Origin: Spirochaetia bacterium
GTDB taxonomy: Bacteria; Spirochaetota; Spirochaetia; B11-G9
Reading direction: 5' to 3'
NCBI GenBank assembly: GCA_027859095.1
Contig: JAQIBN010000085.1
Coordinates: forward strand, 1-56,128
DNA: 56,128 bases
Shown here: positions 12,947 through 31,058 of the stretch, one piece after another
How positions within the stretch are numbered: the first letter of the stretch is position 1
How the letters are laid out: each line of letters starts with the position of its first letter
Position numbers and translations under genes: made by a program
The notes under the pieces: generated by a model
What the model was told of the DNA's origin: nothing
The model's database searches: none
The model's input: the letters and a program-made list of their open reading frames with translations, nothing else

Positions 12947-12947
12947 T

Positions 12948-13760
12948 ATGAGTTTATCACCTTCTAATTTTGAAAATATACTTGTTATGGGAAAGAGTGG
13001 AGCAGGGAAGCAACCCCGAATCGATGTTTTTACTGCAGATTTTGGATTAAAACAGCTTTCCACAGGTAATATTTTCCGGTCATTTATGAAAATATTTAAT
13101 GATGCAGCTTATGAAGGTGATATAGATCAATTTTACAATATTGACAAAAATGAGTTTATAGAAGATAAAAAAATGAAAGAAACACTTGGATCCAGTATTA
13201 ATAATTCCCTTATGGATGATTTTATACTGGGTCTTAAGGCTCACTATTATGTAAGTAATGGGAAATATGTTCCAGACAGTCTTACAAATAGGCTATTTGA
13301 ATCTTACTTTAGCAGATCAGACTACAAAGGGATGGTACTTGATGGATATCCCCGAACTGTTACCCAGGCAGAATACCTCTTCAAATTAACATCAGAAAAA
13401 GGTACAAAAATTGATGCTGTTGTTCTTGTGGAGAACGAGGATGATGCCATCATTAAGCGAACTATGGGACGAAGAATATGCCCTTCCTGCGGAGCTGTAT
13501 ATCATCTTGAATTCAAACCTCCAAAAGATGGGAAGTTGTGTACAAAATGCGGAACTGAGGTAATACTCAGATCTGATGATACAGAAGAGAAACTACGTAC
13601 CAGACTCAAGGAATTTCATGAAAAGACTCAGCCGACAATAAATTTTCTTTCAGAAAAAGGAATACCAGTAGTTAAAGCAGAAGGTAATCTACCTGTTTTT
13701 ACAGAAGAGGCTGTTAAACAAAGTGTTGTTGACGGTTTAAAGGAAGCAGGTCTGCTTTAA
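12948..13760 (+). CDS. adk: Adenylate kinase family NMP kinase with Zn-binding LID (atypical)
   Basis: GKSGAGK P-loop, LSTGNIFR, LDGYPRT..QA, CPSC-x16-CTKC LID, RSDD; ATG 12948. Confidence 0.75.
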   Translation: MSLSPSNFENILVMGKSGAGKQPRIDVFTADFGLKQLSTGNIFRSFMKIFNDAAYEGDIDQFYNIDKNEFIEDKKMKETLGSSINNSLMDDFILGLKAHYYVSNGKYVPDSLTNRLFESYFSRSDYKGMVLDGYPRTVTQAEYLFKLTSEKGTKIDAVVLVENEDDAIIKRTMGRRICPSCGAVYHLEFKPPKDGKLCTKCGTEVILRSDDTEEKLRTRLKEFHEKTQPTINFLSEKGIPVVKAEGNLPVFTEEAVKQSVVDGLKEAGLL

Positions 13761-14706: not shown

Positions 14707-14735
14707 TTGATTTTCTCCATTACTACTGTTATACT
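14707..14735 (+). promoter_or_regulatory. Sigma70 promoter of the cyclase gene
   Basis: TTGATT-N17-TATACT with TG extension, then SD AAGGAGG at 14742. Confidence 0.6.
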
Positions 14736-14754
14736 CTCCTTAAGGAGGGCTGCT

Positions 14755-15663
14755 TTGATTGATCTATCTTTACTAAATGAAACAACTGAAATTCTCGCAA
14801 ACAACTTTACACCAGGAGAGATAGAAAGCCTTGGCAAGATTATTTATTCCAAATATGACGGACATAAAGCTGCAGGAGTAAAAAATCACATTACAATGTC
14901 TCCACGAAAATGTGCCAATGCCCTGGTTCAGTTTCTTAACGAAAGTAAAAAAACTTTCCAGCTAATTAAACTGATTATTGAAATGGATGACAGTGCATTA
15001 AATGGAAAAGCAAAAAATATTGAAGGCCTGGAAGCTTATTTAAATAAGCTGGTTAAAAGTGATATTTACTACGACTTTAAAAAACGTAAATTACATCATT
15101 CTAAAAAAGATGCTCATAAAATGATAAACTGGGGCATTTTAAATGATGGGAAAACTTACAGTATAACTGTTATGAGCCTGGATATAGTTGGAAACTCTAT
15201 GCTTGTTAAAAAACACGGTACAAAAACTATGGAAAAAGTATATTTTCGTCTTCGAAATTTTATTGAAAAGAAAGTTCTGGATTACGATGGGCGGATTTGG
15301 AATTTTGCAGGGGATGGAGGTCTTATTGCATTTACTTTGAAAGAGCACCCTACCAGAGCAGCACTCTGTGCACTGGATATAAGAGCTGCCCTTGCTGTAT
15401 TTAATATACGTCCTGATCTTCCTATAAAGGAACACATATCCCTGCGACTTGCTCTGGATACAGGAAAAATAAAATTTTCCTCCAACACAGGCCACATTGT
15501 TTCAGATATTATAAACTATGCAGCACATCTCGAAAAAGCAGGAACTCTTCCAGGAGAAATCTCTATCTCGGAAAATGTAAAAAAAGATCTGGCCATAAAA
15601 GTTGCCAAAGTTTTCAGTGATAAAAATGTATTTGAGAATATGAATTGTTACAGTACTGTTTAA
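14755..15663 (+). CDS. Class III nucleotide cyclase domain protein with N-terminal helical domain
   Basis: SLDIVG and AGDG metal-binding Asp motifs, LRLALDTG, IN.AAHLEK, GEISIS; TTG start 6 nt after AAGGAGG. Confidence 0.75.
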   Translation: MIDLSLLNETTEILANNFTPGEIESLGKIIYSKYDGHKAAGVKNHITMSPRKCANALVQFLNESKKTFQLIKLIIEMDDSALNGKAKNIEGLEAYLNKLVKSDIYYDFKKRKLHHSKKDAHKMINWGILNDGKTYSITVMSLDIVGNSMLVKKHGTKTMEKVYFRLRNFIEKKVLDYDGRIWNFAGDGGLIAFTLKEHPTRAALCALDIRAALAVFNIRPDLPIKEHISLRLALDTGKIKFSSNTGHIVSDIINYAAHLEKAGTLPGEISISENVKKDLAIKVAKVFSDKNVFENMNCYSTV

Positions 15664-18600
15664 AATATACCAATTCTTGTTCCTATACTGTAAGTTGGAA
15701 CTACGCCAGCCTGAATATCTGAAGAGATAAACCACAGAGCAGCTTCTGCATATAATGAATAGGTATTGAGCATTTTTAAATCCTTAAGTTCAAATTTTGC
15801 AAACTCAAACTGTGTTAATACTGATCCTAAAACAACACCCTTATCAGTAAATGAAATACGGTCTTCGGACATTGTAAAATAATTAAAATTTGCACCTACT
15901 GCAACTGACATTGAAAAGAAATCCCAATCATAACCAAAAAAATAACTAAATGGCAGATCTATAATACTTGCCAGTAACTTTCCACCTACAACCAGTCCAT
16001 TAAAACGGCCTGGAGGCGCCATCCCAATTTGTGCCTGAATCTTAACTACATCATCAAAGAAACTAAGACCAACTCCAAGCTCTCCATATGTAGCACCAAG
16101 AGCATGCATATCAATATACAATCCCTGAACAAAGGAAGGCACCTGGTATTTTTCTTTTCTTCCTTCCCTTATAAGAACTTCCACACTTTCAAGTCCATTT
16201 GAATCTCCAGCAGTTCCAACAAGTGTCACTGATCCATTAAATTTTTTATTTTCTTCTGGAATAAAAAGGCTAATCCCAGGTGATGTTTCATCTACATTAA
16301 CAAATATTTTGATAATATTCGATTGACCATCTTCAAGAAAGGATCGAATTATTAATTGATTTTCACCTTCATTCAGATCATATGTCTCAAGCCGGAATTC
16401 CCAGCTTTCCCGGCCCTTTGCATCTACAAAACTTCTTCCATTATCAAGACTGACTTCAACCTTTTTAACTCTTTTAGTTTTATCATCCTGTTCCGGACCA
16501 TCATATCCGGCTGTTCCTGTTATCAATGGACGGTCGGATACAAATTGTCCACTAATTATATTTTCAACTTTTAACCATGGTCCATCTGAAATAAATGATA
16601 TATTTCTTAGTTCAGATGTAATACTATTTTCAGCATCAGCACTTTCAACAGACAAAGTATGTAATCCATCAATTAATTCTTCTTTACCTAATGAAAAACT
16701 GAATAATCCATTAGTTTTAATATCTGTCGTTTGAATTATATTACCATCAATTTTAAGTACAGCTTTTTTTACATCTTCAAGATGATTCATACGACCTTCA
16801 ACTACGAAATTTCCAACAACATCTTTGCCTTCTTCAGGAAAAAATAAATCTATAGATTTTTGTTCTTCTAAAGGCATTATTAGTAAATTCCGGGTTTCAC
16901 TTATACTGTTAGCTGCATGATCAGTAACTGTTATAGTAAGATTATACCAGCCTGGATTGTATTCCTTTATATCAATAATATCCCTAAAAACGTCCTCAGT
17001 TATTATTTCCCTAATTACAGGTTCACCTTCACCATCCAGATATTTTAATTCTGTAATTACAGATTTTATCTTTGTACTGTCATAAACTTTACCATCAACT
17101 ACAAGAGTACCTGCTACAGAATCACTTTCACCAGGATAATCAAGTTTAATCTCCGGAGATGTATTATCAATATTTAAAATAGTTGAAGCTATACCAACTG
17201 TTCCAGCATTATCAACAGCTTTAATTAATATTGAATGCGTACCATCTCCAGAAAGTCGGGTATTAAAATTATAAGTCCATGTAAATGTTGTAGATTCTTC
17301 ATTACTTTCTTCAATAAAAACTTCTTTTTCTAAAATAGCTTTATTAAATGTCACTCCATTATCATATGAAATAAATACAGAATCTACGCCATTCTCATCA
17401 TAGGTTTGACCTTTCAGGGTAATATTATTTTTAGCATAAAATTCAATAACAGGAGAAAGCAATAAACTAACAGGTTCAGCTTTTGATACAATAAAATTTA
17501 CAGTTACATCTTCACTCATAAACCCACCTGAGTCAGATGCTCTTACAGTTACAGTATGCTCGCCATCAATTAAATTATCTAAAGAATAGGGGATATTAAA
17601 GTATTTATCTCCCAGAAGTTCTGTAAATTCTTCAGTATCCATTGAATAATAAATAGAGCCAACTTCATCATCATCAAAAACCAATCCCGTTATTTCAAAG
17701 TCATCACGAATAGTAGCATTACTTGCGGGTATTTCTATGGAAACAGTAGGTCTGTCTGATTCACGATCAACTATAAATTGAGGTTTTAATTCAGTAATAT
17801 TCCCAGCTCTGTCACTAAGCTTCAATATAAAATCTTCTGATATTACTTCTTCTCTGGATAAATCAATGTTAAGAAAAAAACCATTATCCTCTGCAATAGG
17901 GATTTCGATAAAATCCACACCATTTTCGGAAAAAAACAGTAGACCACCATCAGTAAAATCTTTGATTTCACCAACTACTGTTATAATTCCCTCAACAGAA
18001 ACATCAGGCTCAGGGATAATTACAGCAAGAACTGCAGATGTTCTATCAATAACAAATGGAATAGTCTCTGAATAAATATTGCCAAAAATATCTGTAATAA
18101 TTACTGTATAAAAATGATTACCTTCCTCCAGGCTTAACAGATCAATTTCCATATCAAATACTTCAGAATTATCATCTTTTCCATTTGTCAATTCACGACT
18201 GGAACCATAACTGACAGCAGATCCTGAAAACTCAATATTTGTTTTTTCGATACCAGTTCCATCTGAGTATGTTCCCGATAGAAGCAGCTTATCTGTTAAA
18301 ACAGAATTATTGGTATTACTAATATTTAAAACAGGTATAGTATTATCACTTCCAACCTTTATATCTTCACTTGTATATTCTTTTCCCTGGGATGTTTCTA
18401 TTTTTACGGTAAAAGAAACAGGTATAGATTCAGATACAGGTACAATTGAAAAACGACTGCCCTCATATTCAATTTTAAAGCTTTCCTGTTCTGGAACTAA
18501 AACAGCAGATTTAATTGTATCTTCTGTTACAAAAATGTCCATTACGGCTTCTTTGGAATTTTTTGGATTATCTGAATCCACAACTGCAGGACTTATCATT

Positions 18601-20477
18601 TTTTCTGTAACCTTATGCCCTGTTATATATCCTGTCAGGGGTTTCTTTTTTGAGATATTAGCAGTCTGTCCCCTGCTTAAACGAGAATCTTCAATAAATA
18701 TACTGTCATTTTTTTCAGCTTGAAAAGGTTTATATTCTTTATCTTTTTCAGGCTGAGGTGAAATATAAATACGGGTACTGAAATTATCAGATCTTTCTAA
18801 CCCGTCAGTAACTGTCAGGGTTAGATTGTACCCACCTTCTTCAAAATCTTTTGGAAGCAGGATTGAAAACTTTCCATTCGATACTTTTACAATCTCTTCT
18901 GACCGACTGCCAATAGTATATACAGCAGATAGAGAACCCTCTCCACCTGAAACCAATCCCTCAATTTTAGATGTCTTTCCCTGCATAAGAACTGCTCCAT
19001 CATAAAAGGGTTCAAGAACTAGTTTATCTGAATTATAAGTATCTACTGATAATTCAGGAACAACATTTATAATATTAAATGAATACTTAATACTTTTACC
19101 TTTTAAACCAAACATATCCACAGCATACAAATCTACTGTATGTTTACCTGGCTCCAGATCTTTTACTGGAATTAAAAAAGGACCATTTGAATCAATAGAT
19201 TTAAATTCTGTTTTATCAATAGAGAATTCTATAGACTTTACACCATCATCATCATTTGCCAGACCCTTTAAATAACCAGTAAACGGATCAATATTTTCAA
19301 TAACATTTTTTTCACTGGAATTAATTAATTTTAACAATGGAAGATCAGCTTCATTATCCATCTTTAAATCCAGTTTATAATTTCGTGTATTTCCAGATAG
19401 ATCGACTGCAATAAATGTTATAGATGCAGATTTTCTTCCACTTACATCAAAGGTATGGCTCCAATAAGGGTTACCAGTAATTAGGGGAATAGAAACTTCT
19501 TCCTTGTCATAAACAAATGAGAATCCTGCAAGACCAACTTCATCATGAACGGTTCCGGAAACTGTAACAAATCCATTTAATATTTTATCCTCAGTGGGTG
19601 ACTTTATTACAATTTCCGGCTTTTTATTATCTGAATAATAAACAAATACAGTACTGCTTTCAGATCCAGTTCCATCGCTGGTTCTTAACCAGATATAATC
19701 AGTACCACCTTCGCTGTCTCTTGTATCAATTTTTAAGGAAAATTCACGTTCAATATGTTTAGGTTTTCCCGAAAGCTTTAAAGTTAAATAATTTTCACCA
19801 TCTAAACTATACTCAAGATTTTCTACTCCATTAGCATCAAATACAGTACCCGTAATAGTTATTTTTCCGGATAATATTTCTCCGTTACTATGAGAATCTA
19901 TTTTAATTTCCGGTTTTGTTTTATCAATATTAAATGATACTAAAACCTCATTTCCTTTAAGTCCGTTTATATCAGTAACTCTGGAAGAAATTGTATGTAC
20001 TCCGTCGGAAAAAGTTTTAACACTAAAAAAGGAGGACCAGAACTCTTTACCTTCTGCGCGAACAAAGGGTTCCTCATCAAGACGAACTTCAACAAAATCA
20101 ATTCCGTCGTCGTCTGTTGCAGTACCTATAACTGTAAAGTCACCTCCAACTCTCATATTTTCTGTAGGGCTGGATATTGAGGCTACAGGAAGATCAGATT
20201 CAGAATCAATAAATATATTTATGGGATCTGCTATAGAAATATTACCGGCTTTATCGGTACTTCTAATTATAAGGTTATATTCACCATCCGGGTAGTCGGA
20301 GATATCGTAGTTGTATGTCCAGTTTTCCAGGCCGTCTACCGTTTTGTATTCAGTACTTATTGTCTCTTTTTCAATTGCTGCTGGAAGGGGTGTTGCCTCC
20401 TGGGATGAAAGCGCTGTTGAGATCGTGAAAAAAATGATTACCAGTAATAAATTTTTATTAATTATTCTCCTTTTCAT
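15660..20477 (-). CDS. Giant Ig-like repeat envelope protein with putative C-terminal outer-membrane beta-barrel
   Basis: Sec signal (MKRRIINKNLLLVIIFF..ALS), about a dozen repeats of 'D..P.(V/I).I..P...G...D..G...V...D..GN'; last ~150 aa are alternating amphipathic strands ending IGTRIGIF. Confidence 0.75.
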   Translation of the reverse strand: MKRRIINKNLLLVIIFFTISTALSSQEATPLPAAIEKETISTEYKTVDGLENWTYNYDISDYPDGEYNLIIRSTDKAGNISIADPINIFIDSESDLPVASISSPTENMRVGGDFTVIGTATDDDGIDFVEVRLDEEPFVRAEGKEFWSSFFSVKTFSDGVHTISSRVTDINGLKGNEVLVSFNIDKTKPEIKIDSHSNGEILSGKITITGTVFDANGVENLEYSLDGENYLTLKLSGKPKHIEREFSLKIDTRDSEGGTDYIWLRTSDGTGSESSTVFVYYSDNKKPEIVIKSPTEDKILNGFVTVSGTVHDEVGLAGFSFVYDKEEVSIPLITGNPYWSHTFDVSGRKSASITFIAVDLSGNTRNYKLDLKMDNEADLPLLKLINSSEKNVIENIDPFTGYLKGLANDDDGVKSIEFSIDKTEFKSIDSNGPFLIPVKDLEPGKHTVDLYAVDMFGLKGKSIKYSFNIINVVPELSVDTYNSDKLVLEPFYDGAVLMQGKTSKIEGLVSGGEGSLSAVYTIGSRSEEIVKVSNGKFSILLPKDFEEGGYNLTLTVTDGLERSDNFSTRIYISPQPEKDKEYKPFQAEKNDSIFIEDSRLSRGQTANISKKKPLTGYITGHKVTEKMISPAVVDSDNPKNSKEAVMDIFVTEDTIKSAVLVPEQESFKIEYEGSRFSIVPVSESIPVSFTVKIETSQGKEYTSEDIKVGSDNTIPVLNISNTNNSVLTDKLLLSGTYSDGTGIEKTNIEFSGSAVSYGSSRELTNGKDDNSEVFDMEIDLLSLEEGNHFYTVIITDIFGNIYSETIPFVIDRTSAVLAVIIPEPDVSVEGIITVVGEIKDFTDGGLLFFSENGVDFIEIPIAEDNGFFLNIDLSREEVISEDFILKLSDRAGNITELKPQFIVDRESDRPTVSIEIPASNATIRDDFEITGLVFDDDEVGSIYYSMDTEEFTELLGDKYFNIPYSLDNLIDGEHTVTVRASDSGGFMSEDVTVNFIVSKAEPVSLLLSPVIEFYAKNNITLKGQTYDENGVDSVFISYDNGVTFNKAILEKEVFIEESNEESTTFTWTYNFNTRLSGDGTHSILIKAVDNAGTVGIASTILNIDNTSPEIKLDYPGESDSVAGTLVVDGKVYDSTKIKSVITELKYLDGEGEPVIREIITEDVFRDIIDIKEYNPGWYNLTITVTDHAANSISETRNLLIMPLEEQKSIDLFFPEEGKDVVGNFVVEGRMNHLEDVKKAVLKIDGNIIQTTDIKTNGLFSFSLGKEELIDGLHTLSVESADAENSITSELRNISFISDGPWLKVENIISGQFVSDRPLITGTAGYDGPEQDDKTKRVKKVEVSLDNGRSFVDAKGRESWEFRLETYDLNEGENQLIIRSFLEDGQSNIIKIFVNVDETSPGISLFIPEENKKFNGSVTLVGTAGDSNGLESVEVLIREGRKEKYQVPSFVQGLYIDMHALGATYGELGVGLSFFDDVVKIQAQIGMAPPGRFNGLVVGGKLLASIIDLPFSYFFGYDWDFFSMSVAVGANFNYFTMSEDRISFTDKGVVLGSVLTQFEFAKFELKDLKMLNTYSLYAEAALWFISSDIQAGVVPTYSIGTRIGIF

Positions 20478-20520
20478 ATTCCACTTACCCCGTATTAAAT
20501 AATTATAGTTTTTATAAATT

Positions 20521-23500
20521 TTATTCTTCAAGGAGCGTAGCCTCCTCTAGAAATGATCCATTGTATCCAATTACAAGAGGTCCTTCGGTTCTTCGATCTA
20601 TTATATCAAGAGGATCTGATGTATCCCGTGTACTGTTAATTCCAATGTAAGCATTGCTTTCGGAAGGAGCTGTAGAAGCAGATACAGAGGTTACCTCCCA
20701 GGCTCCAGTGTACTGCCCGGTTACATAACTGGCTCCATTAGCAAAGTTAACATCGCCAAGTGGATATACAGGCCATGCTGCTCGCAGTGCATATTTTGTT
20801 CCACTGAATGAGAGGGAATAGTTAGAAATTACTGGACGGTAATCTGCACCCACAGTTTCATCAAAATCTTTTATTGCTATAGAGTTATACATGCCATTTG
20901 TAAATAGCGCATCTATAGTGTAAGTCTCAATTTCAGAATCAAGGCAGTCGAAGGAAGGCAGGTATGTATATTTCAAATTACTGTTGGATCCATCATAATA
21001 TGATAAATGAACACCATGATCAGGATCTACAATCATATCAACATAGAGCCCAGCACCAGTATCAAGTGGAGTTGCTCTAGAAAGCCATGCTGAAGGATTA
21101 TTTACAGGGTCAGAATTATACATAAATTTTAGCTCAGACGCAGATCCATCATAGTAGGCCATATAAATATTTGATCCAACGCCATTTTCATCCCAGGCAA
21201 TATCAAAGTGTTCTGAATCTGCTCCACCGGAAGTTAGCTCTATCCTAGTTGGTAAGCCTGTTCCTGTATAACCAACACCGTCATTATAAGGAGTTATCAA
21301 TCCAACATTATAACTGGTACCTGGATAATTTGTATCTGCAGATGGTGTATATTTACTTAAATTTGTTGTCCAGCCTCCTGCCATATTAGTTATCTGATCC
21401 CCTGCACTCAGAGCCGATCCAGTTTTAAAAGCAAAGAAAACAATGCTCTGCGATTCACCGGCCACATCATAATACGCGATATAGTTATCTGTATTTGTAT
21501 CCCCACCATCTGTTATTATTTGCAGGTTGTGGTTACGATTCATAACAACAGAGTTATATGCATAATTTGCGTCACCATTAAATGATAGGTTACCTATACC
21601 TAGTCGATTCTGATTTAGTCGATGCCAATTGAAAGCTTCTGACTCATAGGTTTCATCTTTACCCCATTGCACTGAGCCATAATATGCATAATTTGTTTGC
21701 CCACTATTCCAGTTCATATTGTGCAAATATATATAAATCGGAGTTCCATCTTCATTGATATAAAAATCTCCACCCATAGTACTCCATGAATTTGCTAATT
21801 GCGTTGAATTCAGGTTTACACTTTGTCCATTTTCAACATAATACCAATTCATATCTGTCGATTCTGTATTAGCTACCTCAGAAAAAACCGGTCTCATAAC
21901 AGCTTCTGTTTTACCAGCAATAGCTGTTTTCGAATCAAGCTGCCAAAAATACATATATCTATCGTCAGTCATTCCAGGTTTGTACGCAGAAGCTTCACTG
22001 TTGTAATCTTTACTATTGTCATTAATATTGTTTATAGAACTTATTCCATGGGTGATAACAGTAAGTTCTCCAGATTTTGTGGAATCCTTGATTACATCAA
22101 CATAAGAATAATTTACAGCATCTCTTGCTGTAATAGCTACTGAGTTTGAGCCAATTGTTACCAAATCAGATGGATATGCTACTGTATCAGGGTCAGGATA
22201 AAGGTTGTAACCTGAAATACGTATTGTATTTGAAGCACTGTAACTGACTGGGTATCGCCCCAAAGCACTCCTCTTAATAAAAGAAAGAGTTCCATTCTCC
22301 ATGCCTGTAGTAATATCAGTTATATACGGAACAACATCCACAGTCATAGAATCTGAGGCAGTATTTGGAGTCAAGGCATAATCTTCAATAGAAAAAGTTA
22401 TGGGAACATTGTTTTGAGCTACACCTGCAACAGTTGCAGAATTCCAGGCATATGTCCATGTAATCAGAAGACCTGTATATTCCGAGAAATTATATGTATC
22501 GATTACAAAATTACCATCCTGGGAAACTAATGCGTTACCAACCCAGGAAGCAAGAATATGATCAGTTCCAACACCATCAAGTGTTAATTTAATATTTTTA
22601 ATTCTCTGGTTATCCCATGCATTTCCTGTTATTGTCATTTGACCACTTACATCGGGATCAGTTCCATTGTGCAGACTGCTTCCTGATTCCTCAAGATGCC
22701 CTGCTATTACATTCCCCTGTGTCAGCGCATCAATGCTGATTGTGGGATAGATATCATCAGTATTATCAATAATTACGTTTATTAGCTGAGATGTAGTTAT
22801 CCCATCTGAATCTGTAACTTCATAATAAAAGGATTCCGAACCGTCAACATATGGGGGTACAGATATATCAATTGTTGATGAAGGATTTGTAGATAATAAT
22901 GTACCAGTGTTATTAATCCCCTGAAAAAGTTTATAGCTCAGACCAGGTATATAATTATCATTTACTGTTATTGAAAGGTAGAGTCTATTCTGAGCATTAA
23001 AACTTGCTGTATATCCAAACTGTTCTCCAGCTTCAACAATGCCGCTCCAATCAAGGTCAGTTCCTACTGTTGTTGCAGTAATTACAGGTTTATGATTCTT
23101 GATAAAACCACTTGCCAGGTAGTGATGGGCATTCCCGGCCTTATCCCACACCACATAATGAAGATCAATAGTACCATCGGGTATATTTTCCGAATTAAGT
23201 TCTGCCCACCATGAATAGGTCGAGCCGGACAATGTCAATGACTCATTATATCCATCAAGGTCTCCGTTAACACCTGAATCATTTCCCAGTTCATCAGGAT
23301 CATTAATTATTATCTTATAACTGTCAGAGGAGGGATAAGGAACAGATCCGTTTCCATCTCCAAAGTTATTTGCGCCCACTGCTACAGATATATCTGCTAA
23401 TGCAGAATTATACACATTTCCAGCTCTAACAAAATAGACCTCTATCTTATCTATACCACTGACTGTGCCCGAATCTATGGCCTGACCCTGAACATTAAAA

Positions 23501-26019
23501 GTTGTTCCATTTATATCTTCCAAAACACCTGTCCAGGTTCCAGTCGGAAGAATATTATCCACATTAAGATTGATAGAAGTATCTGTAGAGTTACTGGCAT
23601 TATCTACAACCTTCAGTTTTATAGGCAGAACACCACTCATAGGAATATAACTTGTTGTATTGATACTTTGTGAAATACTATAGTCTTTACCGTCCATGGC
23701 TCCAATAAGGGTACTTGAACCTGTAATATCAGTATAACTGGTACCTCCGTTGTAACTTATAAGTATTTGATTTACCAGCTGGGGGTCATGAGCCTGACCT
23801 GTCAAAGTAAAAGTACCTTTTGCATAATCAAATGAACTGTGTGAGAAATTATCAAAATAGGGATAAGAATTGTCAAATTCAACATCAATAGATACATCGT
23901 CCCCAATTACTCCAGGATTGGCACCATCTTTTGTATCGACAGCCCGCACCTGAATAGTAACTGTCCCTGTTCCTCCGGTAGTTGCCGCAAAGAGTTCACC
24001 ATTTGTATTCAGTTCCTGCTGCCAGTTCAATGTTCCACTTACAGTATTCCATAATGACTCATCCTCAAAAGGATCTGAAGTATTACCATCTCCATCTAGG
24101 ATAATTTGATCAAGAAAATCATGATCTCCATTAAGATCCAATCGCATTTCTACTCTTAGAACCTGTTGTTCGTCATAGGATGTACCACGAATAGTAACTG
24201 GTCCCCCAGTCTTAAACCCATCCTCTGGATATGTAAATGAAACTTCAGGTTTATCAAGGGCTGAATTGATTAAAAAGTAATAATAGGATTCAGTTGTTTC
24301 ATAAGTGTTACCAGCAATATCTGTAACTTTAAATGTAATTGGCAGCTGCCATACTCCACCTCCAAGATCATCTGCTGAACCAATATTTGTGTAAGTACCT
24401 TCCACATCTGTTAGTGCCTTTGACCAATGGCTAAGATCAAATAACTCTTCCCAGGCTCCATCTTTACCTATTTTTATAAACCCTTCCAGGAAGGCATTAG
24501 AATTATCTTCACATATCCCCTGTACAGTAACGTCACCGTACACCTCGGAACTTTTCACTGGGTAATTAAAGGTGACAGATGGATTTGTAATATCAACATA
24601 AAAAGAAATATTATAAGATGATATTTTTCCTGTTCCATCTTCAGCATAAACCTTTACACTATGCATTCCTTCTGATAAAGCAGGACTTGTATACGTCCAA
24701 TCTGCAAAACCATTAGCAGTTGATGCATCCCTCCAGTCTACTTCAGCCTCTCCATCCAGTTGAACCTTTACAGAAAGAACGGATTGATCATCATATGCAG
24801 TTCCGACTAATCCTGCTGTAGAAGAATTGAGATAATCACCTTGTGCGGGGTTGGTAATAGCAATCTGTGGTGCTCCAAGATCAATTGTAAAAGAAACTAC
24901 ATCAGATACTTTCTGAGTACCATGATCATCTTCAGCACGTATTTGAATAGTATGAGTACCATTCCCCAAAGACGAAATATCGTATTTAAAATTGACTGCT
25001 TGTCCGGAACCAGTAATTTCAGTTCCAGGGAGTGCTGAGTTCCATTCCCAGACAGTATCATTTATATTTATTTCAATAGTTGATGTATCTACTGCATCAT
25101 CATCCTCAACACGGCCAATGACTATTGCATTACCTCCAAGCTGAGCTCCAACCTCAGGATTACTAATAGTTATTACAGGAACATCATCATTCATATCAAC
25201 ATTAAGAGGCAGCTCAGTTATTTCTATTCCTTCCAGAGATAATTCTGTAATAACAGCTCCTGGAACAGATTCACCATTCTCAATTTTATAAAGATTTTCT
25301 ATGGTTAAGTAAGTTCCACCATTAAGACTGTTTACATCATTATAATGAAAAAAATGTGTATTTTGATTTCCGGCAAAATCTTCTGCAGTGATCTCCAGTG
25401 AGTACGAGCCGGTTACTGCGTTTGATAAAACACAACTCCATGAATTAGTTCCCTCAACAGTACTCAGAGTACCGGAACCTGAGACTAAGGCAACAGATAC
25501 CTGTCGTATTCTAAAAGGGTCTGTTGCTTCCCCTTTTATTGAAAACTGGGAGTCCGATGCGGCAGAAGCAAATCCGGGAGAAACCGTTACCATAACTATA
25601 GGTGCTGTATTATCAAAATATAACAAAAGTCTTTCTTCACTTGTTTTTGGAGTTGAGGAAGTATCACTGACAAGAACTACAATATCCTTTTCACCATCTT
25701 CAACAGTTGCAGTATCAATAGTATAGAACCAGGATAGCTGATCGGTTGCTACAGTTGCATCTAAAAAGGTAAGACCTCCATCAAAGGATAACTTCACAGA
25801 TTTTATTCCAATATCATCACTGGTAGTACCAGTAAGAGTAATTTCACCTTTAACATAGTCTCCATTAACTATAACAGTACCATCACCATAGCTTCCAATA
25901 GAAAGTTCAGGAGCTTCTATATCAACCTTATCACCAAGACCAATCATGGTATTGGGACAACCTGCTATAACTACTATCGATAGTATAAATAAATATTTCA
26001 AAATTTTATTAACTGTCAT
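20521..26019 (-). CDS. Giant Ig-like repeat lipoprotein with putative C-terminal beta-propeller domain
   Basis: ATG 26019 after SD AAGGAG; lipobox IAG-C; many Ig-like repeats; C-terminal repeats 'YMAYYD....LKFMY' and 'HLSYYD....LKYTY'. Confidence 0.75.
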   Translation of the reverse strand: MTVNKILKYLFILSIVVIAGCPNTMIGLGDKVDIEAPELSIGSYGDGTVIVNGDYVKGEITLTGTTSDDIGIKSVKLSFDGGLTFLDATVATDQLSWFYTIDTATVEDGEKDIVVLVSDTSSTPKTSEERLLLYFDNTAPIVMVTVSPGFASAASDSQFSIKGEATDPFRIRQVSVALVSGSGTLSTVEGTNSWSCVLSNAVTGSYSLEITAEDFAGNQNTHFFHYNDVNSLNGGTYLTIENLYKIENGESVPGAVITELSLEGIEITELPLNVDMNDDVPVITISNPEVGAQLGGNAIVIGRVEDDDAVDTSTIEININDTVWEWNSALPGTEITGSGQAVNFKYDISSLGNGTHTIQIRAEDDHGTQKVSDVVSFTIDLGAPQIAITNPAQGDYLNSSTAGLVGTAYDDQSVLSVKVQLDGEAEVDWRDASTANGFADWTYTSPALSEGMHSVKVYAEDGTGKISSYNISFYVDITNPSVTFNYPVKSSEVYGDVTVQGICEDNSNAFLEGFIKIGKDGAWEELFDLSHWSKALTDVEGTYTNIGSADDLGGGVWQLPITFKVTDIAGNTYETTESYYYFLINSALDKPEVSFTYPEDGFKTGGPVTIRGTSYDEQQVLRVEMRLDLNGDHDFLDQIILDGDGNTSDPFEDESLWNTVSGTLNWQQELNTNGELFAATTGGTGTVTIQVRAVDTKDGANPGVIGDDVSIDVEFDNSYPYFDNFSHSSFDYAKGTFTLTGQAHDPQLVNQILISYNGGTSYTDITGSSTLIGAMDGKDYSISQSINTTSYIPMSGVLPIKLKVVDNASNSTDTSINLNVDNILPTGTWTGVLEDINGTTFNVQGQAIDSGTVSGIDKIEVYFVRAGNVYNSALADISVAVGANNFGDGNGSVPYPSSDSYKIIINDPDELGNDSGVNGDLDGYNESLTLSGSTYSWWAELNSENIPDGTIDLHYVVWDKAGNAHHYLASGFIKNHKPVITATTVGTDLDWSGIVEAGEQFGYTASFNAQNRLYLSITVNDNYIPGLSYKLFQGINNTGTLLSTNPSSTIDISVPPYVDGSESFYYEVTDSDGITTSQLINVIIDNTDDIYPTISIDALTQGNVIAGHLEESGSSLHNGTDPDVSGQMTITGNAWDNQRIKNIKLTLDGVGTDHILASWVGNALVSQDGNFVIDTYNFSEYTGLLITWTYAWNSATVAGVAQNNVPITFSIEDYALTPNTASDSMTVDVVPYITDITTGMENGTLSFIKRSALGRYPVSYSASNTIRISGYNLYPDPDTVAYPSDLVTIGSNSVAITARDAVNYSYVDVIKDSTKSGELTVITHGISSINNINDNSKDYNSEASAYKPGMTDDRYMYFWQLDSKTAIAGKTEAVMRPVFSEVANTESTDMNWYYVENGQSVNLNSTQLANSWSTMGGDFYINEDGTPIYIYLHNMNWNSGQTNYAYYGSVQWGKDETYESEAFNWHRLNQNRLGIGNLSFNGDANYAYNSVVMNRNHNLQIITDGGDTNTDNYIAYYDVAGESQSIVFFAFKTGSALSAGDQITNMAGGWTTNLSKYTPSADTNYPGTSYNVGLITPYNDGVGYTGTGLPTRIELTSGGADSEHFDIAWDENGVGSNIYMAYYDGSASELKFMYNSDPVNNPSAWLSRATPLDTGAGLYVDMIVDPDHGVHLSYYDGSNSNLKYTYLPSFDCLDSEIETYTIDALFTNGMYNSIAIKDFDETVGADYRPVISNYSLSFSGTKYALRAAWPVYPLGDVNFANGASYVTGQYTGAWEVTSVSASTAPSESNAYIGINSTRDTSDPLDIIDRRTEGPLVIGYNGSFLEEATLLEE

Positions 26020-26084
26020 TGTTAACTCCTTCATAAACAAGATCGTATTACCATTTCCAAAAAAAAAAATACCACCCCACCTAT

Positions 26085-26112
26085 TTATCGGCAAATTTAG
26101 TACTTTCATTTA
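26085..26112 (-). promoter_or_regulatory. Sigma28 (FliA/SigD)-type promoter of the giant-Ig operon
   Basis: TAAA-N16-GCCGATAA on the minus strand, about 65 nt upstream of ATG 26019. Confidence 0.7.
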
Positions 26113-26126
26113 AAATCCGGTAATTC

Positions 26127-26510
26127 CTAACCCAGAAAAACCTCTTCATCGTCACAAACAATATCAGCAGAACCAATATCTAAATTTATTTTAAAAACTC
26201 CAGAAAACCCTGGTAATTGAAATACTTCCAGAACATGGGGCTGTAACCTATCCAAAACAATACTACCGTCACTTTCTTTAACCCTATTCAATAAATTAAT
26301 TAAAGAACCTATTCCCATTGCTGAGATATATTTGATATTACTCATATCAAATACTAATTGGGTATATCCCTGGTCAATAAGTAAATTTATTCTTTCCTCA
26401 AAGTAGATAGAATTGTAGCTGTTAATGGATCCAATGGGCTCAATTATGATTGTACCCACAGATTCCTTTACAGTCTGAAAAGAAAACTCAAGATCTTTAT
26501 ATACATCCAT
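26127..26510 (-). CDS. STAS-domain anti-sigma factor antagonist (SpoIIAA/RsbV-like)
   Basis: G.INSYNS..F, LVFDMSNIKYISAMGIG.L, VLEVFQL.GF. Confidence 0.8.
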   Translation of the reverse strand: MDVYKDLEFSFQTVKESVGTIIIEPIGSINSYNSIYFEERINLLIDQGYTQLVFDMSNIKYISAMGIGSLINLLNRVKESDGSIVLDRLQPHVLEVFQLPGFSGVFKINLDIGSADIVCDDEEVFLG

Positions 26511-26552
26511 ATCAACCCCCTATATAAATAAATTTACTTCTACAGCCATTAA

Positions 26553-26569
26553 AGCAATAACTATGCCAA
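26553..26569 (-). promoter_or_regulatory. Sigma54 (-24/-12) promoter of the STAS gene
   Basis: TTGGCAT-AGTTA-TTGCT with exact GG/GC spacing. Confidence 0.75.
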
Positions 26570-26629
26570 CTTCAAATCAGAGCTACTTTATATAAAATCT
26601 TATAGATAGAACATAAAACCATTATTTAA

Positions 26630-26667
26630 TCGACCTCAAGGTCGAGCTATATCGACTAAAAGGACGA
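26630..26667. promoter_or_regulatory. Putative tandem upstream activator sites for the NtrC-family protein
   Basis: TCGACC-N4-GGTCGA (26630-26645) and TCGACT-N4-GGACGA (26652-26667), 22 bp apart. Confidence 0.55.
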
Positions 26668-26674
26668 ATAAATA

Positions 26675-26703
26675 TTGTATAAGCGCAGTTTAACTGGTAC
26701 AAT
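26675..26703 (+). promoter_or_regulatory. Sigma70 promoter of the NtrC-family gene
   Basis: TTGTAT-N17-TACAAT with TG extension. Confidence 0.5.
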
Positions 26704-26743
26704 GAAGGGAATAAATAAAAATTGTGTTATGAAGAAGGGCTAA

Positions 26744-28135
26744 ATGAAAATATTAAACATTCTTATACTTGATGATGATCCTACTCAACTGGAACTATTA
26801 AAGTTAATGTTTGAAAAAATAGAATATCCTCCATGTAATCCTGTTTTTACATCAAATGAAAAAGATTTTTTCTCAGAACTCTCCCAGGCTCCATATGATC
26901 TGGTTATTAGTGATTATTTTATGCCTGATATAACAGGAAGAGAAGTATTAGATAAGGTGAAAATTGAGAAACCCTGTTGCGAAGTAATAATACTAACTTC
27001 AGGAACTACTACCAAAGAAGCAATTGAGCTGATGAAGATGGGTGCCTACGATTTCTTACTTAAACCAATTAGTTTTGAAATTCTAAAGAATCGTTTGAAT
27101 AAAATATTTGAACTCAAAAATCTTATTCAGGAAAATGGAAGCCTTCTAGAACAGGTTAAGATTAAAGATGTAAGTTTTTCAAGTGATATTATTTTCAAAA
27201 GCCATAAAATGGAGGAAGTAATAAACATTGCAGCCCGGTCTGCCGGTACTGATTCAAATGTTCTTATAAGAGGTGAGAGCGGTACAGGGAAGGAACTTGT
27301 TGCCAGAGCCATACATTTCTCAAGTCCAAGAAAAGACAAACCTTTTATAACTATTAATATAGCTACTTTACCGGAAACACTTGTTGAAAGCGAATTGTTC
27401 GGCCATATTAAAGGATCATATACCGGAGCAGAATCCGAACGTATCGGACGATTTGAAGAAGCAAAAGATGGAACAATTTTTATAGATGAAGCCGGAGATA
27501 TTCCCCTTACAATTCAAATAAAGTTATTACGCTTAATTCAATTTGGAGAATTTCAAAAAGTAGGCTCCAATATTACTAATAAAGTAAGTGTCCGCATTAT
27601 TGCGGCTACAAGTAGAAATCTCGAAGAAATGATACAAACTGGAAGTTTCAGAGAAGATCTTTTTTACAGACTAAACGTAATTCCTATTAATATCCCACCA
27701 CTCAGAAAAAGAAAAGAGGATATTTCTCTGCTTATTAATTATTTTCTAAAAATAAAAAGTGAAAAACAAAACAAAGAAACTGCGCTTTTAACTGATGAAA
27801 CTAATGACCTTTTAATGAACTACTCATATCCTGGAAATATTAGGGAACTGGAAAATATTATTGAATATTCAATAGCAATTGCGAGGGGCAAGTATATTAC
27901 AAGTAAAGAACTACCTGCAATTTTACAAAGTGAAAAAAAATTCCAGGAAGATACTCTACAAATTAAAACTACTGATTATACTGCAAATATGGCTCTATTC
28001 GAAACAAACCTGGTGAATGAAGCCTTAAATACTGCAGAAGGAAATCAGAGTGCTGCAGCAAGATCTCTGGGCATTTCTGAGAGAAAGCTTCGATCACGAA
28101 TGGAAATTTTGGAGATTCAAAATACATTTCGCTAA
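26744..28135 (+). CDS. Sigma54-dependent NtrC/AtoC-family response regulator (REC-AAA+-HTH)
   Basis: LILDDD/ISDYFMP/KP receiver; GESGTGKE, ESELFGH.KGSYTGA, FIDE, REDLFYRL, GNIRELEN; Fis-type HTH. Confidence 0.9.
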   Translation: MKILNILILDDDPTQLELLKLMFEKIEYPPCNPVFTSNEKDFFSELSQAPYDLVISDYFMPDITGREVLDKVKIEKPCCEVIILTSGTTTKEAIELMKMGAYDFLLKPISFEILKNRLNKIFELKNLIQENGSLLEQVKIKDVSFSSDIIFKSHKMEEVINIAARSAGTDSNVLIRGESGTGKELVARAIHFSSPRKDKPFITINIATLPETLVESELFGHIKGSYTGAESERIGRFEEAKDGTIFIDEAGDIPLTIQIKLLRLIQFGEFQKVGSNITNKVSVRIIAATSRNLEEMIQTGSFREDLFYRLNVIPINIPPLRKRKEDISLLINYFLKIKSEKQNKETALLTDETNDLLMNYSYPGNIRELENIIEYSIAIARGKYITSKELPAILQSEKKFQEDTLQIKTTDYTANMALFETNLVNEALNTAEGNQSAAARSLGISERKLRSRMEILEIQNTFR

Positions 28136-28309: not shown

Positions 28310-30946
28310 CTATTTCAGCCAAAGCATACCATAAGGAGGCAGCTCCAAATCTATAGAACCCTGATCATTAATCAGAATTTTTGCTCCTGTAAATCCATTC
28401 ACAAAATGGGTATCCTTTTTTGAATTCAGCCAATTATTATCTGCTCCCTGTAAAGTTGAAAGATCAAGATTAAAAGTAACTGCTTTTTCAGAAATATTTC
28501 CAAGGATCAAAGAATGATCTCTTTTATGAAACGGATGATTTAGAAAAAGTGTATCTGTAAGAGCAATAAACTCAAAGTCTTCACTCCCCGGATAGAATGC
28601 ATTATCAGTACACCGAAGTTCAGTTATTTTATTGATCAATGGGAAAAATGCTTTTTGAAAAGGATCAACAGGATCTGATAATTTCATATTTGGTAAATAA
28701 TTTTTATGTCTGTTAAGATCCCGGGGTTTACCGGATATTTCAAATCCATGCTGATCATTCTTTATTCCCAATAAATCATTAAAATAAATTGCAGGAACAG
28801 ATTGCCCAATGGTCAGGACAAAGGCCTGAGCCAGTGCCAAACGTGAAGCTTCTAAAGAAGGATCAATTACTAATCCGGAGATATCATTTGACGTTAATGA
28901 ACTTCTGGTTGTTGCACAAAGCTCATATATAGTTTTACCGTCAATTATCCAATTCAGGAAATAATCAATTGAAGGATCAGCGATTAGAATTTTATAATTA
29001 AGACCGGATATCTCTGCTATTTTTTTCAAAAGATTATCCCTGTTCAACATATCTTTTTTCAGAATAAAAATATTATCGGTAGTCACTGAATCAGCTGTAA
29101 AGAGACCAAGCAATTCATCTTTATAATTAACAAGCCCTGATTCAATAATTATTTTATTAAATGTGTCTGCCGGAATTTCTCCAATTGGAACTGAACGAAA
29201 CTTTGCTCTACCTCCCTGTTTTTCAATTCTATTCTTTAGATTATAAAACTGCCCAATACTCACATGACCATCTGTTCTATGGACACCAAGGCCCTGAACA
29301 GATCGCCCATCATGAGTGGACAGCATCACAAAGGGAACAAAATTATCCGGAACTTTCTTTTTAAATAGTTCATAGTAATTTATTAAGGGCTGCAGTGTGC
29401 ACTCATTAAAGGCAGTAACTGTTGAATTGACAGGACCGAATACATAGGCAAATACTCCCCCTTTACTCATTTCATAAACTATCGCGTCTGGTGAGTTGAT
29501 CTCATCCAGAGGGAGAACTCCCGGGGAAGTTAAAGCCATAAGTTTTCTCATAAAATCTATAAACTTATTTCCTTCTTCCATATCAAAATTTTTCTTGCCC
29601 TTCTCCTTCCATAGATATTTTATAGCATCCATTCTCATCATTGATAATTTACCACTGGAAAGGAGATGGTAAAGGTCATCAATTATCATCTTAAAACCAT
29701 CTCTGGTCATGGGATTTATATCTGCCTGGGATTCACTGAAAGTTGTGTAAACAAAAAATTTCTCTCCAAAAACAGCATCATCATTCCTGTTAAATATTTC
29801 CATGTATTCAGAATTAATTCCTATAGCCTTAAGGAATTCACCCATAGATCCAATTTCATCGACCCATATAATTTTTTGATTTGCCTGAAGTTGTGAATCA
29901 TTGAATAGTAATTTATCATCTATTTTATTATCCCTGAGCCATTGCTGGAAAGCAGCAAAAGTTCTTTTATCCTCTGCTGTAAGCCCCTGGTCATTTTCCA
30001 CCTTAAAATATATAGATAGAAATCTGACAACCCGGTCGTCCAGAGCTTTTAATCCCTTATCTAAAAATAGGTTATTCATTTCAATTTCTTGTTTTGTATA
30101 TTTGCGCATTCCAGTATACAAAGGAAAAGGTCTTGGTCTAAAAGTTTTATAAAGAGAACCATCACTTTTCATAGCCACATATTCTTCTGGAGTTATAATT
30201 ATAAAAGCATCACCTGAGTTTTTACCCTCTTTATATGATTCAAGAATATCGCTATCTATATCTACATGATTAACTACATAATCAAGCATTACTGAATAGT
30301 TTTTTGTTAAATTCCTTATATCTTCCACAGTTCCAAAACGAGGATCGACCTTTGCCCGTGTGGCCTGGGAGAACCCCCCATCGTTGAAGTGAGAATTAAA
30401 TGCTTTATCCAGAACTTCCACTACTTCTTCCGGAAGGTTAGTTTTAAAACTTTCAGCATTATCCTGATATATTGAAGTAATATAACGATCTTTATCTAAT
30501 ACTTCTGATTTCTGCAAATTATGTACAAGTTCCAAAGCATTTTCCTTTGGCATAAAAGAGAAAAAATCCTGGGGCCAGACATCACCATGACTCATTATTC
30601 GCTCAGGTAATATGTGGATTCCATTTATATAAGGAAAATACTCTGAAAGTATAGTACCCAGGGTTTGAAGAGTTGGTGATTTATCATCATAAATATTATC
30701 AGGATAGGATATGGCAAAAATTTTCCCTTTCAGGTGTTCATATGGCTTAGATGAATTAAACGAGGCGTAATTAGAAATTTCATTTTTACTTAGTGATTCA
30801 AGGAAGCTACCAGCAGCTGTAATCAGGTAATTATAATTACCAAGTCCCTGCTCTCTTCCATAAAGATTAAGAAGTATATCCTTTATTTCATCCAGGGTTT
30901 TATCAATATACTCAGTAGTGTGAAATTTATTCAGAACCTCTTTCAT
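28310..30946 (-). CDS. GH13 sucrose/glucosylglycerate-phosphorylase-like enzyme with large insertions
   Basis: GIHILP, DGGFS, DYVVNH, TTFSESQADIN, RMDAIKYLWK, DEIN, STHDG, PAIYF..LLG, RDLNR; ATG 30946 after GGAGG. Confidence 0.75.
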   Translation of the reverse strand: MKEVLNKFHTTEYIDKTLDEIKDILLNLYGREQGLGNYNYLITAAGSFLESLSKNEISNYASFNSSKPYEHLKGKIFAISYPDNIYDDKSPTLQTLGTILSEYFPYINGIHILPERIMSHGDVWPQDFFSFMPKENALELVHNLQKSEVLDKDRYITSIYQDNAESFKTNLPEEVVEVLDKAFNSHFNDGGFSQATRAKVDPRFGTVEDIRNLTKNYSVMLDYVVNHVDIDSDILESYKEGKNSGDAFIIITPEEYVAMKSDGSLYKTFRPRPFPLYTGMRKYTKQEIEMNNLFLDKGLKALDDRVVRFLSIYFKVENDQGLTAEDKRTFAAFQQWLRDNKIDDKLLFNDSQLQANQKIIWVDEIGSMGEFLKAIGINSEYMEIFNRNDDAVFGEKFFVYTTFSESQADINPMTRDGFKMIIDDLYHLLSSGKLSMMRMDAIKYLWKEKGKKNFDMEEGNKFIDFMRKLMALTSPGVLPLDEINSPDAIVYEMSKGGVFAYVFGPVNSTVTAFNECTLQPLINYYELFKKKVPDNFVPFVMLSTHDGRSVQGLGVHRTDGHVSIGQFYNLKNRIEKQGGRAKFRSVPIGEIPADTFNKIIIESGLVNYKDELLGLFTADSVTTDNIFILKKDMLNRDNLLKKIAEISGLNYKILIADPSIDYFLNWIIDGKTIYELCATTRSSLTSNDISGLVIDPSLEASRLALAQAFVLTIGQSVPAIYFNDLLGIKNDQHGFEISGKPRDLNRHKNYLPNMKLSDPVDPFQKAFFPLINKITELRCTDNAFYPGSEDFEFIALTDTLFLNHPFHKRDHSLILGNISEKAVTFNLDLSTLQGADNNWLNSKKDTHFVNGFTGAKILINDQGSIDLELPPYGMLWLK

Positions 30947-31058
30947 TTCTCCCTCCAAAATATCGACATAAGCTATATGATCTAATTTAATAATTAATTA
31001 CAGATAGCTTTTCTTATTCTAATAGCATTAATAAATAATTACCAATATAATAATCATT

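Follow-up and report, generated by a model that had tools for sequence, protein, structure and literature searches.

In leptospiral Lig proteins and other lipoproteins with tandem Big domains an N-terminal lipobox is followed by a long chain of immunoglobulin (Ig)-like domains, and in autotransporters and in intimin/invasin a beta-barrel is joined to a long Ig-like or repeat chain. The barrels of OmpA and OmpX have both ends in the periplasm and contain no channel for a passenger. As for regulation, the repeat adhesin FrhA of Vibrio cholerae is controlled by the flagellar hierarchy, reportedly in an indirect manner, and SypG is the enhancer-binding regulator of the SypG-sigma54-SypA circuit of Vibrio fischeri. 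Here we compare with these systems a locus in a 56,128-nucleotide (nt) stretch of Spirochaetia DNA, called the window throughout (JAQIBN010000085.1, or contig C106, in a 4.21-Mb assembly of 314 contigs that is 89.9% complete), in which two adjacent genes encode giant Ig-like proteins, named here IgA and IgB.

Judged by its sequence and distribution, the envelope module at this locus is real and uncharacterised, and its unit is the gene pair. On balance we lean slightly towards reading the window as holding a conserved spirochaete two-gene envelope module that acts as a structural element coupled to motility. An earlier note, made from the letters of the window, had listed seven features: an NtrC-type activator gene, tandem palindromic sites, an exact sigma54 promoter, a gene for a STAS protein without the canonical serine, a TAAA-N16 promoter, a lipid-anchored Ig chain of about 1830 amino acids (aa), and an Ig chain of about 1600 aa with a C-terminal barrel-like domain. 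All seven were recovered, each in its place, and their descriptions proved correct as well.

Results

IgA and IgB are giant Ig-like proteins with different predicted anchors

On the minus strand the operon runs from 26743 to 15660 in the order activator half-sites, sigma54 promoter, STAS gene, sigma28-type box, IgA and IgB, the last two genes being separated by 43 nt. IgA (20521-26019, minus strand) encodes a predicted lipoprotein of 1832 aa. Its open frame is longer (20521-26109), and database gene calls start at the ATG at 26109, which gives 1862 aa and swallows the sigma28-type box. The true start is most likely M31 of the long frame, at 26019, since an AAGGAG ribosome-binding site, a signal peptide with the lipobox VIAGC (MTVNKILKYLFILSIVVIAGC) and four orthologues that start there all point to this position; with this start the box lies outside the gene. 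Orthologous lipoboxes read ILAGC, LLTGC, LFAGC and FIAAC. The chain comprises about a dozen Ig-like domains, with Pfam matches to Big_7 and Big_13; among the matches for the pair there were also sub-threshold ones to a Ca2+-stabilised adhesin repeat.

A structure model of the last 762 aa of IgA (predicted local distance difference test [pLDDT] 83.6, predicted template modelling score [pTM] 0.83) contains Ig domains, an IPT-like domain (about 21970-22362, minus strand) and a propeller of about six blades and some 26 strands (about 20524-21957, minus strand). The best Foldseek matches of the propeller, 3h6j and 2w38, were weak (E about 1e-05; template modelling [TM] score 0.27 by query and 0.44 by target), the nearest solved folds being a Pseudomonas pseudaminidase/putative neuraminidase and GH43/GH62 enzymes. 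In the Atlas, the nearest named clusters (0.91-0.93) carry BNR_4, which is taken as a lead only. Neither the propeller nor the IPT-like part had a Pfam match at E <= 1. A canonical sialidase (GH33/BNR) was rejected, since the propeller has neither Asp-boxes (S-x-D-x-G-x-T-W) nor the RIP motif; the only Asp-box-like hits are those at residues 108 and 785, both within the Ig part. No RNA data set was listed as containing the stretch. Three contigs of 155-164 nt from a run filed as an RNA library (X1) match IgA without differences (22841-22994, 24805-24958 and 25716-25879); they show neither start nor strand and could be carry-over of DNA, and are not counted as proof of expression.

IgB (15660-20477, minus strand), starting at M19, is a secreted chain of 1605 aa, the same length as database record P0005. 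Its N-terminal 300 aa are unusually conserved (32-45% identity in distant members), and the protein carries about 15 Ig-like domains, with Pfam matches to Big_7 (E 8.6e-52) and to Big_13. When the last 224 aa were modelled from a 25-row alignment, the C-terminal 154 aa (about 15663-16124, minus strand) were predicted to form a closed eight-stranded beta-barrel, with a pLDDT of 84-97 in ten-residue blocks and phenylalanine (Phe) as the terminal residue (...RIGIF). The best Foldseek matches were the barrels of OprF, OmpA, Ail, OmpX and NspA (4rlc, 1qjp, 2n2l, 2m06 and 1p4t). No Pfam family matched the barrel at E <= 1, so that it belongs to none of the barrel families described there. Searching 1.84 billion proteins with a profile of the barrel retrieved only 255 representatives (E <= 0.001). 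In the 150 rows listed, the match ended at the C-terminus of the protein in all but one, and most of these proteins measured 1100-2600 aa, shorter entries probably being fragments. Assignment to the autotransporters or inverse autotransporters (type V) was rejected, given the eight strands, the lack of a linker helix and the C-terminal position of the barrel. One database record names an IgB homologue of Treponema denticola 'neuraminidase'; for IgB of the window, the Pfam and NCBIfam matches included no sialidase family.

Since both ends of an eight-stranded barrel are periplasmic and there is no passenger channel, the most likely place for the IgB chain is the periplasmic side of the outer membrane. 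A complex prediction for a tip-to-tip contact of the C-terminus of IgA (residues 150-762 of A2) with the N-terminus of IgB (residues 27-312 of A3) scored 0.00, which we treat as evidence neither way. By our own arithmetic, 12-15 domains at an assumed length of about 4 nm each would give rods of roughly 50-60 nm. That is, the rods would exceed the plain periplasm, and a structure running along or spanning a widened flagellar compartment, or else a surface fibril, would be a better fit.

The gene pair is conserved and linked in many spirochaetes

An even sample of 401 Spirochaetota genomes was surveyed using the IgB barrel and the IgA C-domain as queries. The barrel was found in 70 genomes, including 39 of the 50 sampled from one family, and the IgA C-domain in 47. 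Both genes are present in 43 genomes (as read from the two tables): in 25 they lie within 30 kb of each other on the same contig, in 4 they are farther apart on the same contig, and in the remaining 14, all fragmented assemblies, they are on different contigs. In other words, the two genes are within 30 kb in 25 of the 29 genomes that have both on one contig. Their order varies and can be IgA-IgB (as in the window), IgB-IgA (as in T. denticola) or convergent, and the survival of linkage through such reshuffling argues for a shared function of IgA and IgB.

A scan of genome contigs confirmed 494 relatives, of which 80 were kept as a locus set; one locus of this set, L102, seems to come from the genome that also supplied L018. 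Among named species the pair is held by T. denticola (records such as WP_253699015.1, with the label 'Ig-like domain-containing protein'), T. putidum, Spirochaeta isovalerica and S. dissipatitropha, and among metagenome-assembled genomes by members of Salinispira, Oceanispirochaeta, Alkalispirochaeta, Sediminispirochaeta and Treponema. The conservation of the gene pair that the earlier note proposed to examine thus holds across many spirochaete genera.

The STAS gene and the activator belong to one gene order

The gene divergent from the operon (26744-28135, plus strand) encodes a 463-aa sigma54 activator of the NtrC type. It combines a receiver domain, a sigma54-interacting AAA+ domain and a C-terminal, Fis-type helix-turn-helix (HTH), the architecture that defines NtrC-family enhancer-binding proteins (Pfam Response_reg, E 3.4e-20; Sigma54_activat, E 4.7e-67; AAA_lid_14; HTH_8, E 1e-07; NCBIfam agrees). 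Its Walker A motif is GESGTGKE, and its sigma54-contact loop reads GSYTGA, at residue 224, in place of GAFTGA; loop variants of this kind may be tolerated. A putative upstream activator site (26630-26656) is made up of three 5-bp half-sites with 11-bp spacing, GTCGA (26656-26652)-N6-TCGAC (26645-26641)-N6-GTCGA (26634-26630), and is centred about 100 nt 5' of the predicted sigma54 start. The promoter itself, TGGCATAGTTATTGCT (TGGCAT-N5-TTGCT; 26568-26553, minus strand), lies 5' of the STAS gene and has the GG-N10-GC core within TGGCAY-N5-TTGCW; the pattern matches once in the window against 0.10 expected. GTCGA/TCGAC palindromes occur just 3 times in the 4.2-Mb genome, and the upstream site accompanies only 1 of the genome's 50 sigma54-like promoter matches, namely that of the window. 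For this reason the activator is probably dedicated to the Ig operon.

The STAS-domain gene (26127-26510, minus strand) encodes 127 aa (PF01740, E 8.5e-17; TIGR00377, 53.6 bits with the cut-off at 53.45). When the protein is aligned to 1sbo and 6m36, the phospho-serine position is occupied by alanine (ISAMGIG, compared with MDSAGLG in TM1442 and MDSTGLG in RsbV), and four orthologues read SAVG, SAGG, RAGE and SAAG. The protein thus lacks the phosphorylatable serine of the D-S-x-G-L-G motif of the SpoIIAA/RsbV type, and no gene for an RsbW/SpoIIAB-type kinase was found in the window. Small kinase frames of the RsbW-like kind adjoin two other STAS genes of the genome (C285:12578-12823 with 12903-13259, and C6:981-1292 with 622-855). 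In the window's lineage, the serine-less STAS protein could sequester an anti-sigma factor and in this way link the sigma54 input to a further sigma factor.

In all five loci with the gene order of the window, the STAS gene and the sigma54 promoter precede IgA, the promoter matching the pattern in four and having one mismatch in the fifth, and the activator stands divergently beside the pair in four of the five. In the 80-locus set, most loci of which have less than 1.4 kb of sequence upstream of the pair, neither the STAS gene nor the activator was found except in L102, which is apparently the genome of L018. Nor was the STAS gene found in 20 wider loci, in which an activator-like gene was located about 4 kb from IgB in one case (L174) and a weak receiver-domain match in another (L188). 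The synteny of STAS gene and activator with the Ig genes therefore stands for the window's order and was not found beyond it. Of the candidate system put forward in the earlier note, the pair is conserved, while a conserved four-part system of pair, STAS gene and activator was rejected, since the last two were found next to the pair only in the window's order. No secretion genes adjoin the pair in the window or in the 20 wider loci.

The upstream motif is also found 5' of sigma54 promoters of Ig genes in L017, L019, L020, L096, L097 and L180. In the close relatives L096 and L097, TCGAC-N6-GTCGA and a sigma54 promoter stand directly 5' of IgA and IgB, respectively, without a STAS gene, and in L180, which belongs to another family, TCGACAATTCTGTCGA lies about 215 nt 5' of the sigma54-type promoter of IgB. 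Since L096 and L097 keep site and promoter without the STAS gene, the real targets of the activator are probably the Ig genes, and the STAS gene is probably a lineage-specific insertion in the leader. That is, the comparison of loci indicates that the STAS gene is an add-on of the window's lineage, and the idea that the sigma54 input is aimed at the Ig genes gains support from these relatives. A second, ATGCAT-type palindrome occurs 5' of sigma54-type promoters of Ig genes in L173 (before both giant genes), L179 and L128 (TTATGCATAATGCATT, CTATGCATTTCGCATAG, TTATGCGTTTTGCATGA and CTATGCATATTGCATTG), which suggests a different dedicated activator in these lineages.

A sigma28-type box precedes the pair in the window and in distant genera

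The sigma28-type promoter TAAA-N16-GCCGATAA (26085-26112, minus strand) begins 14 nt beyond the stop codon of the STAS gene, within the 107-nt gap that separates this gene from IgA, and has a -10 element that ends 65 nt 5' of the start of IgA. The pattern matches once in the window against 0.01 expected. The box has the form of a FliA promoter (TAAA-N15/16-GCCGATAA 5' of a gene), and FliA is encoded in the genome (286.5 bits against a cut-off of 189.6), as are RpoN, FlgM and three FlaB flagellins. The strict pattern has 3 matches in the genome as a whole, with about 2 expected by chance according to our own base-composition estimate, and CCGATA[AT] lies 5' of 59 of 3607 crude gene calls compared with 52 in antisense. 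Within the window's genome alone, the box is not above chance. The argument for sigma28 consequently rests on the position of the box and on its recurrence elsewhere. Ten candidate sites with an A/T-rich -35 precede genes for two histidine kinases, an HD domain protein, a FlgG-like rod protein, FtsK and others, and no clear motility gene set emerged among these ten.

Recurrence was assessed with a strict core, CCGATA[AT] within 200 nt 5' of a gene start, in 74 loci for which starts were assigned by our own start-codon heuristic and from which giant frames open at the locus end or with less than 150 nt upstream were excluded. The core precedes 19 of 74 first genes of the pair. By comparison, it was present in antisense in 5 of 74 cases, before the second gene in 1 of 25, and before 59 of the 3607 genes called in the window's genome (Fisher p of 0.003, 0.02 and 1e-16, respectively, values that overstate the case because related species are not independent samples). 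Among 20 genomes from 18 genera, it was present at 10 of 21 first-gene starts, corresponding to 9 of the 18 genera and 5 of 7 families, and three further genera had sigma54-type promoters before the first gene. In the 74 loci, sigma54-type promoters precede 6 first genes, compared with none in antisense.

In T. denticola, both genes of one genome (G095) have their own TAAA-N16-GCCGATAA, and IgB of another (G025) has TAAA-N16-ACCGATAA, the overall form of the boxes being TAAA-N16-[A/G]CCGATAA. The two genomes contain 44 and 35 matches to this pattern and 11 and 15 to its reversed control, respectively, a three- to fourfold excess. The boxes match the sigma28 promoter of flaB2 of the same species, mapped by rapid amplification of cDNA ends, which has a -10 of CCGATAA and a -35 of TTAA (PMC9481697).

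Neighbouring genes

A 318-aa frame without a Pfam match (14707-15663, plus strand) is convergent with IgB, the two overlapping by 4 nt at the stop codon of IgB. On the other side, the activator gene is adjoined by a gene for an 882-aa protein (28310-30958, minus strand), whose sole match is a short one to an alpha-amylase catalytic domain (E 5.6e-06). A 599-aa protein encoded farther on (32445-34244, plus strand) has a Tim44-like domain above the Pfam cut-off and weak zinc-ribbon and TerB matches below the cut-offs. Elsewhere in the genome, on contig C13 (position 9775, plus strand), a sigma54-type promoter, TGGCACGTTAATTGCT, was found about 180 nt 5' of a sigma70-family gene (region-2 match at C13:9953-10165 in a 292-aa frame). 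Here sigma54 may control a further sigma factor, in a cascade comparable to RpoN-RpoS of Borrelia.

Discussion

In the mechanism that we favour, IgA would be exported and lipid-anchored at its N-terminus, with the propeller at the far end, while IgB would be exported by its signal peptide and fixed in the outer membrane by its C-terminal, OmpA/OmpX-like barrel of eight strands. Alternative sigma factors would transcribe the pair. In the window's lineage, the dedicated NtrC-type activator would bind the TCGAC/GTCGA sites and fire the sigma54 promoter, giving a transcript that covers the non-phosphorylatable STAS gene first and then probably reads into IgA-IgB, because no terminator is predicted between STAS and IgA (the sole predicted hairpin, a weak stem of 5 pairs, lies within the STAS gene). 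The sigma28 (FliA) promoter directly 5' of IgA would be a second input, tied to late flagellar expression, and in other lineages sigma54 promoters with upstream sites would take the place of sigma28. From this arrangement we infer that both promoters fire, that the module is produced alongside the late flagellar genes, and that its role is structural.

Several observations weigh against this reading. The genes around IgA and IgB in the window are metabolic, with no flagellar genes among them, and a flagellar gene cluster as the context of the pair was accordingly rejected. In four other large families of the survey the barrel query found nothing (0 of 75, 0 of 38, 0 of 17 and 0 of 8 genomes), so that periplasmic flagella in general do not depend on the pair. 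The location assigned to the proteins follows from a topology rule. Furthermore, the strict sigma28 core stands before just 26% of the first genes, in species that are related and not independent, and the relaxed pattern TAAA-N16/17-CCGATAA is not enriched in the window's genome (11 matches against 13 for the reversed control). At the position of the box, the four nearest orthologous loci have the degenerate sequences GACGATGT, TCCGACAA, ACCGATGA and GCCGATGA, which keep only CCGATG, CCGAC or ACGAT, the CCGAT core being present in three of the five loci of this order. The flaB promoters of the window's genome (on C7 and C144) read TAAA-N16-ACCGATGG and CTAA-N16-TCCGATTA; their -10 elements, CCGATGG and CCGATTA, differ from the classical one, a deviation that could account for the lack of enrichment of the classical pattern there. 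In two T. denticola loci (L172 and L191), the -10 CCGATAA 5' of the IgB homologue lies inside a palindrome with 10-bp arms, TTAACCGATA-ATA-TATCGGTTAA, which could be the operator of a regulator placed over the promoter; at the same place, G342 (L181) has CCCGAT-N7-ATCGGG. The conservation of the sigma28 box expected in the earlier note is thus found only in part: the box recurs before the pair across gene orders and genera, but is degenerate in the nearest orthologues and not enriched in its own genome.

These points bear most directly on the possibility that TAAA-N16-GCCGATAA in the window's genome is a chance or decayed sequence, and that the operon is driven by the activator and sigma54 only. 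The absence of enrichment, the near-equality of strict matches seen and expected, the degenerate closest orthologues and the conserved, dedicated sigma54 circuit all fit with this. However, the box is exact at 12 of 12 positions, on the correct strand and inside the short STAS-IgA gap of a window in which hardly any match was expected, its core is kept in the majority of the loci of this order, and the same box stands before the pair in distant genera, so that we consider a chance or decayed site unlikely. Another possibility, doubtful but deserving more weight, is that IgA and IgB are surface adhesins or fibrils, like leptospiral Lig or the giant repeat adhesins, with sigma28 and sigma54 timing adhesion against swimming. 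Spirochaete lipoproteins can be surface-exposed, tandem Big_7/Big_13 domains together with the sub-threshold adhesin-repeat matches are typical of adhesins, and a distal sialidase/BNR-like propeller could bind glycans. Moreover, a flagellar-regulated repeat adhesin is known in FrhA of V. cholerae (PMC10865825). What speaks against surface display is mainly IgB: there is no known outer-membrane route for a 1400-aa passenger through an eight-stranded barrel, the protein has neither a 12-stranded barrel nor a helical linker, and secretion genes were not found next to the pair.

Finally, the module could be a device for capturing or cleaving glycans, in which a long stalk would carry the propeller as enzyme or lectin and so feed a saccharolytic spirochaete. 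Its appeal lies in the enzymes among the propeller's best fold matches, in the BNR_4 clusters of the Atlas and in the sugar transporters and the amylase-like gene found near the pair in the window. Yet the fold matches are weak, the propeller has no Asp-boxes, RIP motif or Pfam match, and both the barrel-anchored partner and the sigma28 link would be left unexplained; we regard this reading as very improbable. Within the reading of a motility-coupled structural module, one specific form is that IgB, with its chain pointing inward, and IgA make up a periplasmic scaffold of giant Ig rods laid down with the late flagellar genes, which would space, tether or line the compartment of the periplasmic flagella in Treponema and Spirochaeta. 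At present this is a speculative form of the model, to which we give little credence.

IgA and IgB are among the largest genes of the genomes that hold them, and they are kept in many relatives of Treponema and Spirochaeta, including the tractable oral pathogen T. denticola, so that hypotheses on the module are open to existing genetics in that species, for which fliA (TDE2683) and flgM (TDE0201) mutants have been described. If the proposed control is true, the sigma28 regulon known in spirochaetes would be extended to envelope genes outside the flagellar set by a recurring flagellar-sigma promoter, and if the scaffold is true, the pair would be a hitherto unnamed structural part of the spirochaete envelope. 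Electron tomography has revealed unexplained envelope structures in treponemes, and the pair is a concrete candidate for them. The C-terminal eight-stranded barrel behind a giant Ig chain would represent an undescribed family of anchors. Our literature search found no paper on the IgA/IgB proteins and no report linking the flaB2-type sigma28 promoter to these Ig genes, subscription journals and supplements (e.g. T. denticola proteome and transcriptome tables) not being covered. Identity with T-Mac/TDE0362 was rejected, this being a different protein of 647 aa (PMC11833123).

Compared with described systems, the locus combines features that are otherwise met separately. The regulatory layout resembles that of the SypG-sigma54-SypA circuit. 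In both, an envelope or surface locus is headed by a small STAS gene with a sigma54 promoter (PMC4517449, PMC10120452), under an enhancer-binding response regulator. SypA is controlled through SypE by phosphorylation of a serine and the syp locus makes a polysaccharide, whereas the window's STAS protein has alanine and no adjacent kinase gene, and the product of its locus is protein. The flaB2 promoter shares the -10 CCGATAA with the Ig-gene boxes and has a similarly A/T-rich -35 (TTAA versus TAAA; PMC9481697), but it drives a flagellin, while the box of the window precedes Ig genes. FrhA, like the Ig pair, is a giant envelope repeat protein whose expression follows the flagellar hierarchy (PMC10865825); it differs in being an RTX adhesin with type I export and without lipobox, barrel or propeller. 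IgA has the lipobox and the long Ig-like chain of the Lig proteins, but with Big_7/Big_13 in place of Big_2, with an IPT-like domain and a propeller at its end, and with a barrel-anchored partner encoded next to it; the leptospires may be one of the large families in which the barrel query had no match. IgB resembles the autotransporters and intimin/invasin in joining a barrel to a long chain, but type V barrels have at least 12 strands and a linker through the pore, whereas that of IgB has 8 and no linker helix. With OmpA, OmpX and OprF, IgB shares the eight antiparallel strands and the terminal Phe, as predicted by the model, and OmpA too joins its barrel to a periplasmic part. In OmpA, however, the barrel comes first, whereas in IgB it is C-terminal, behind a 1400-aa Ig chain, and, unlike the OmpA-type barrels, it has no Pfam sequence match and forms a closed family of its own.

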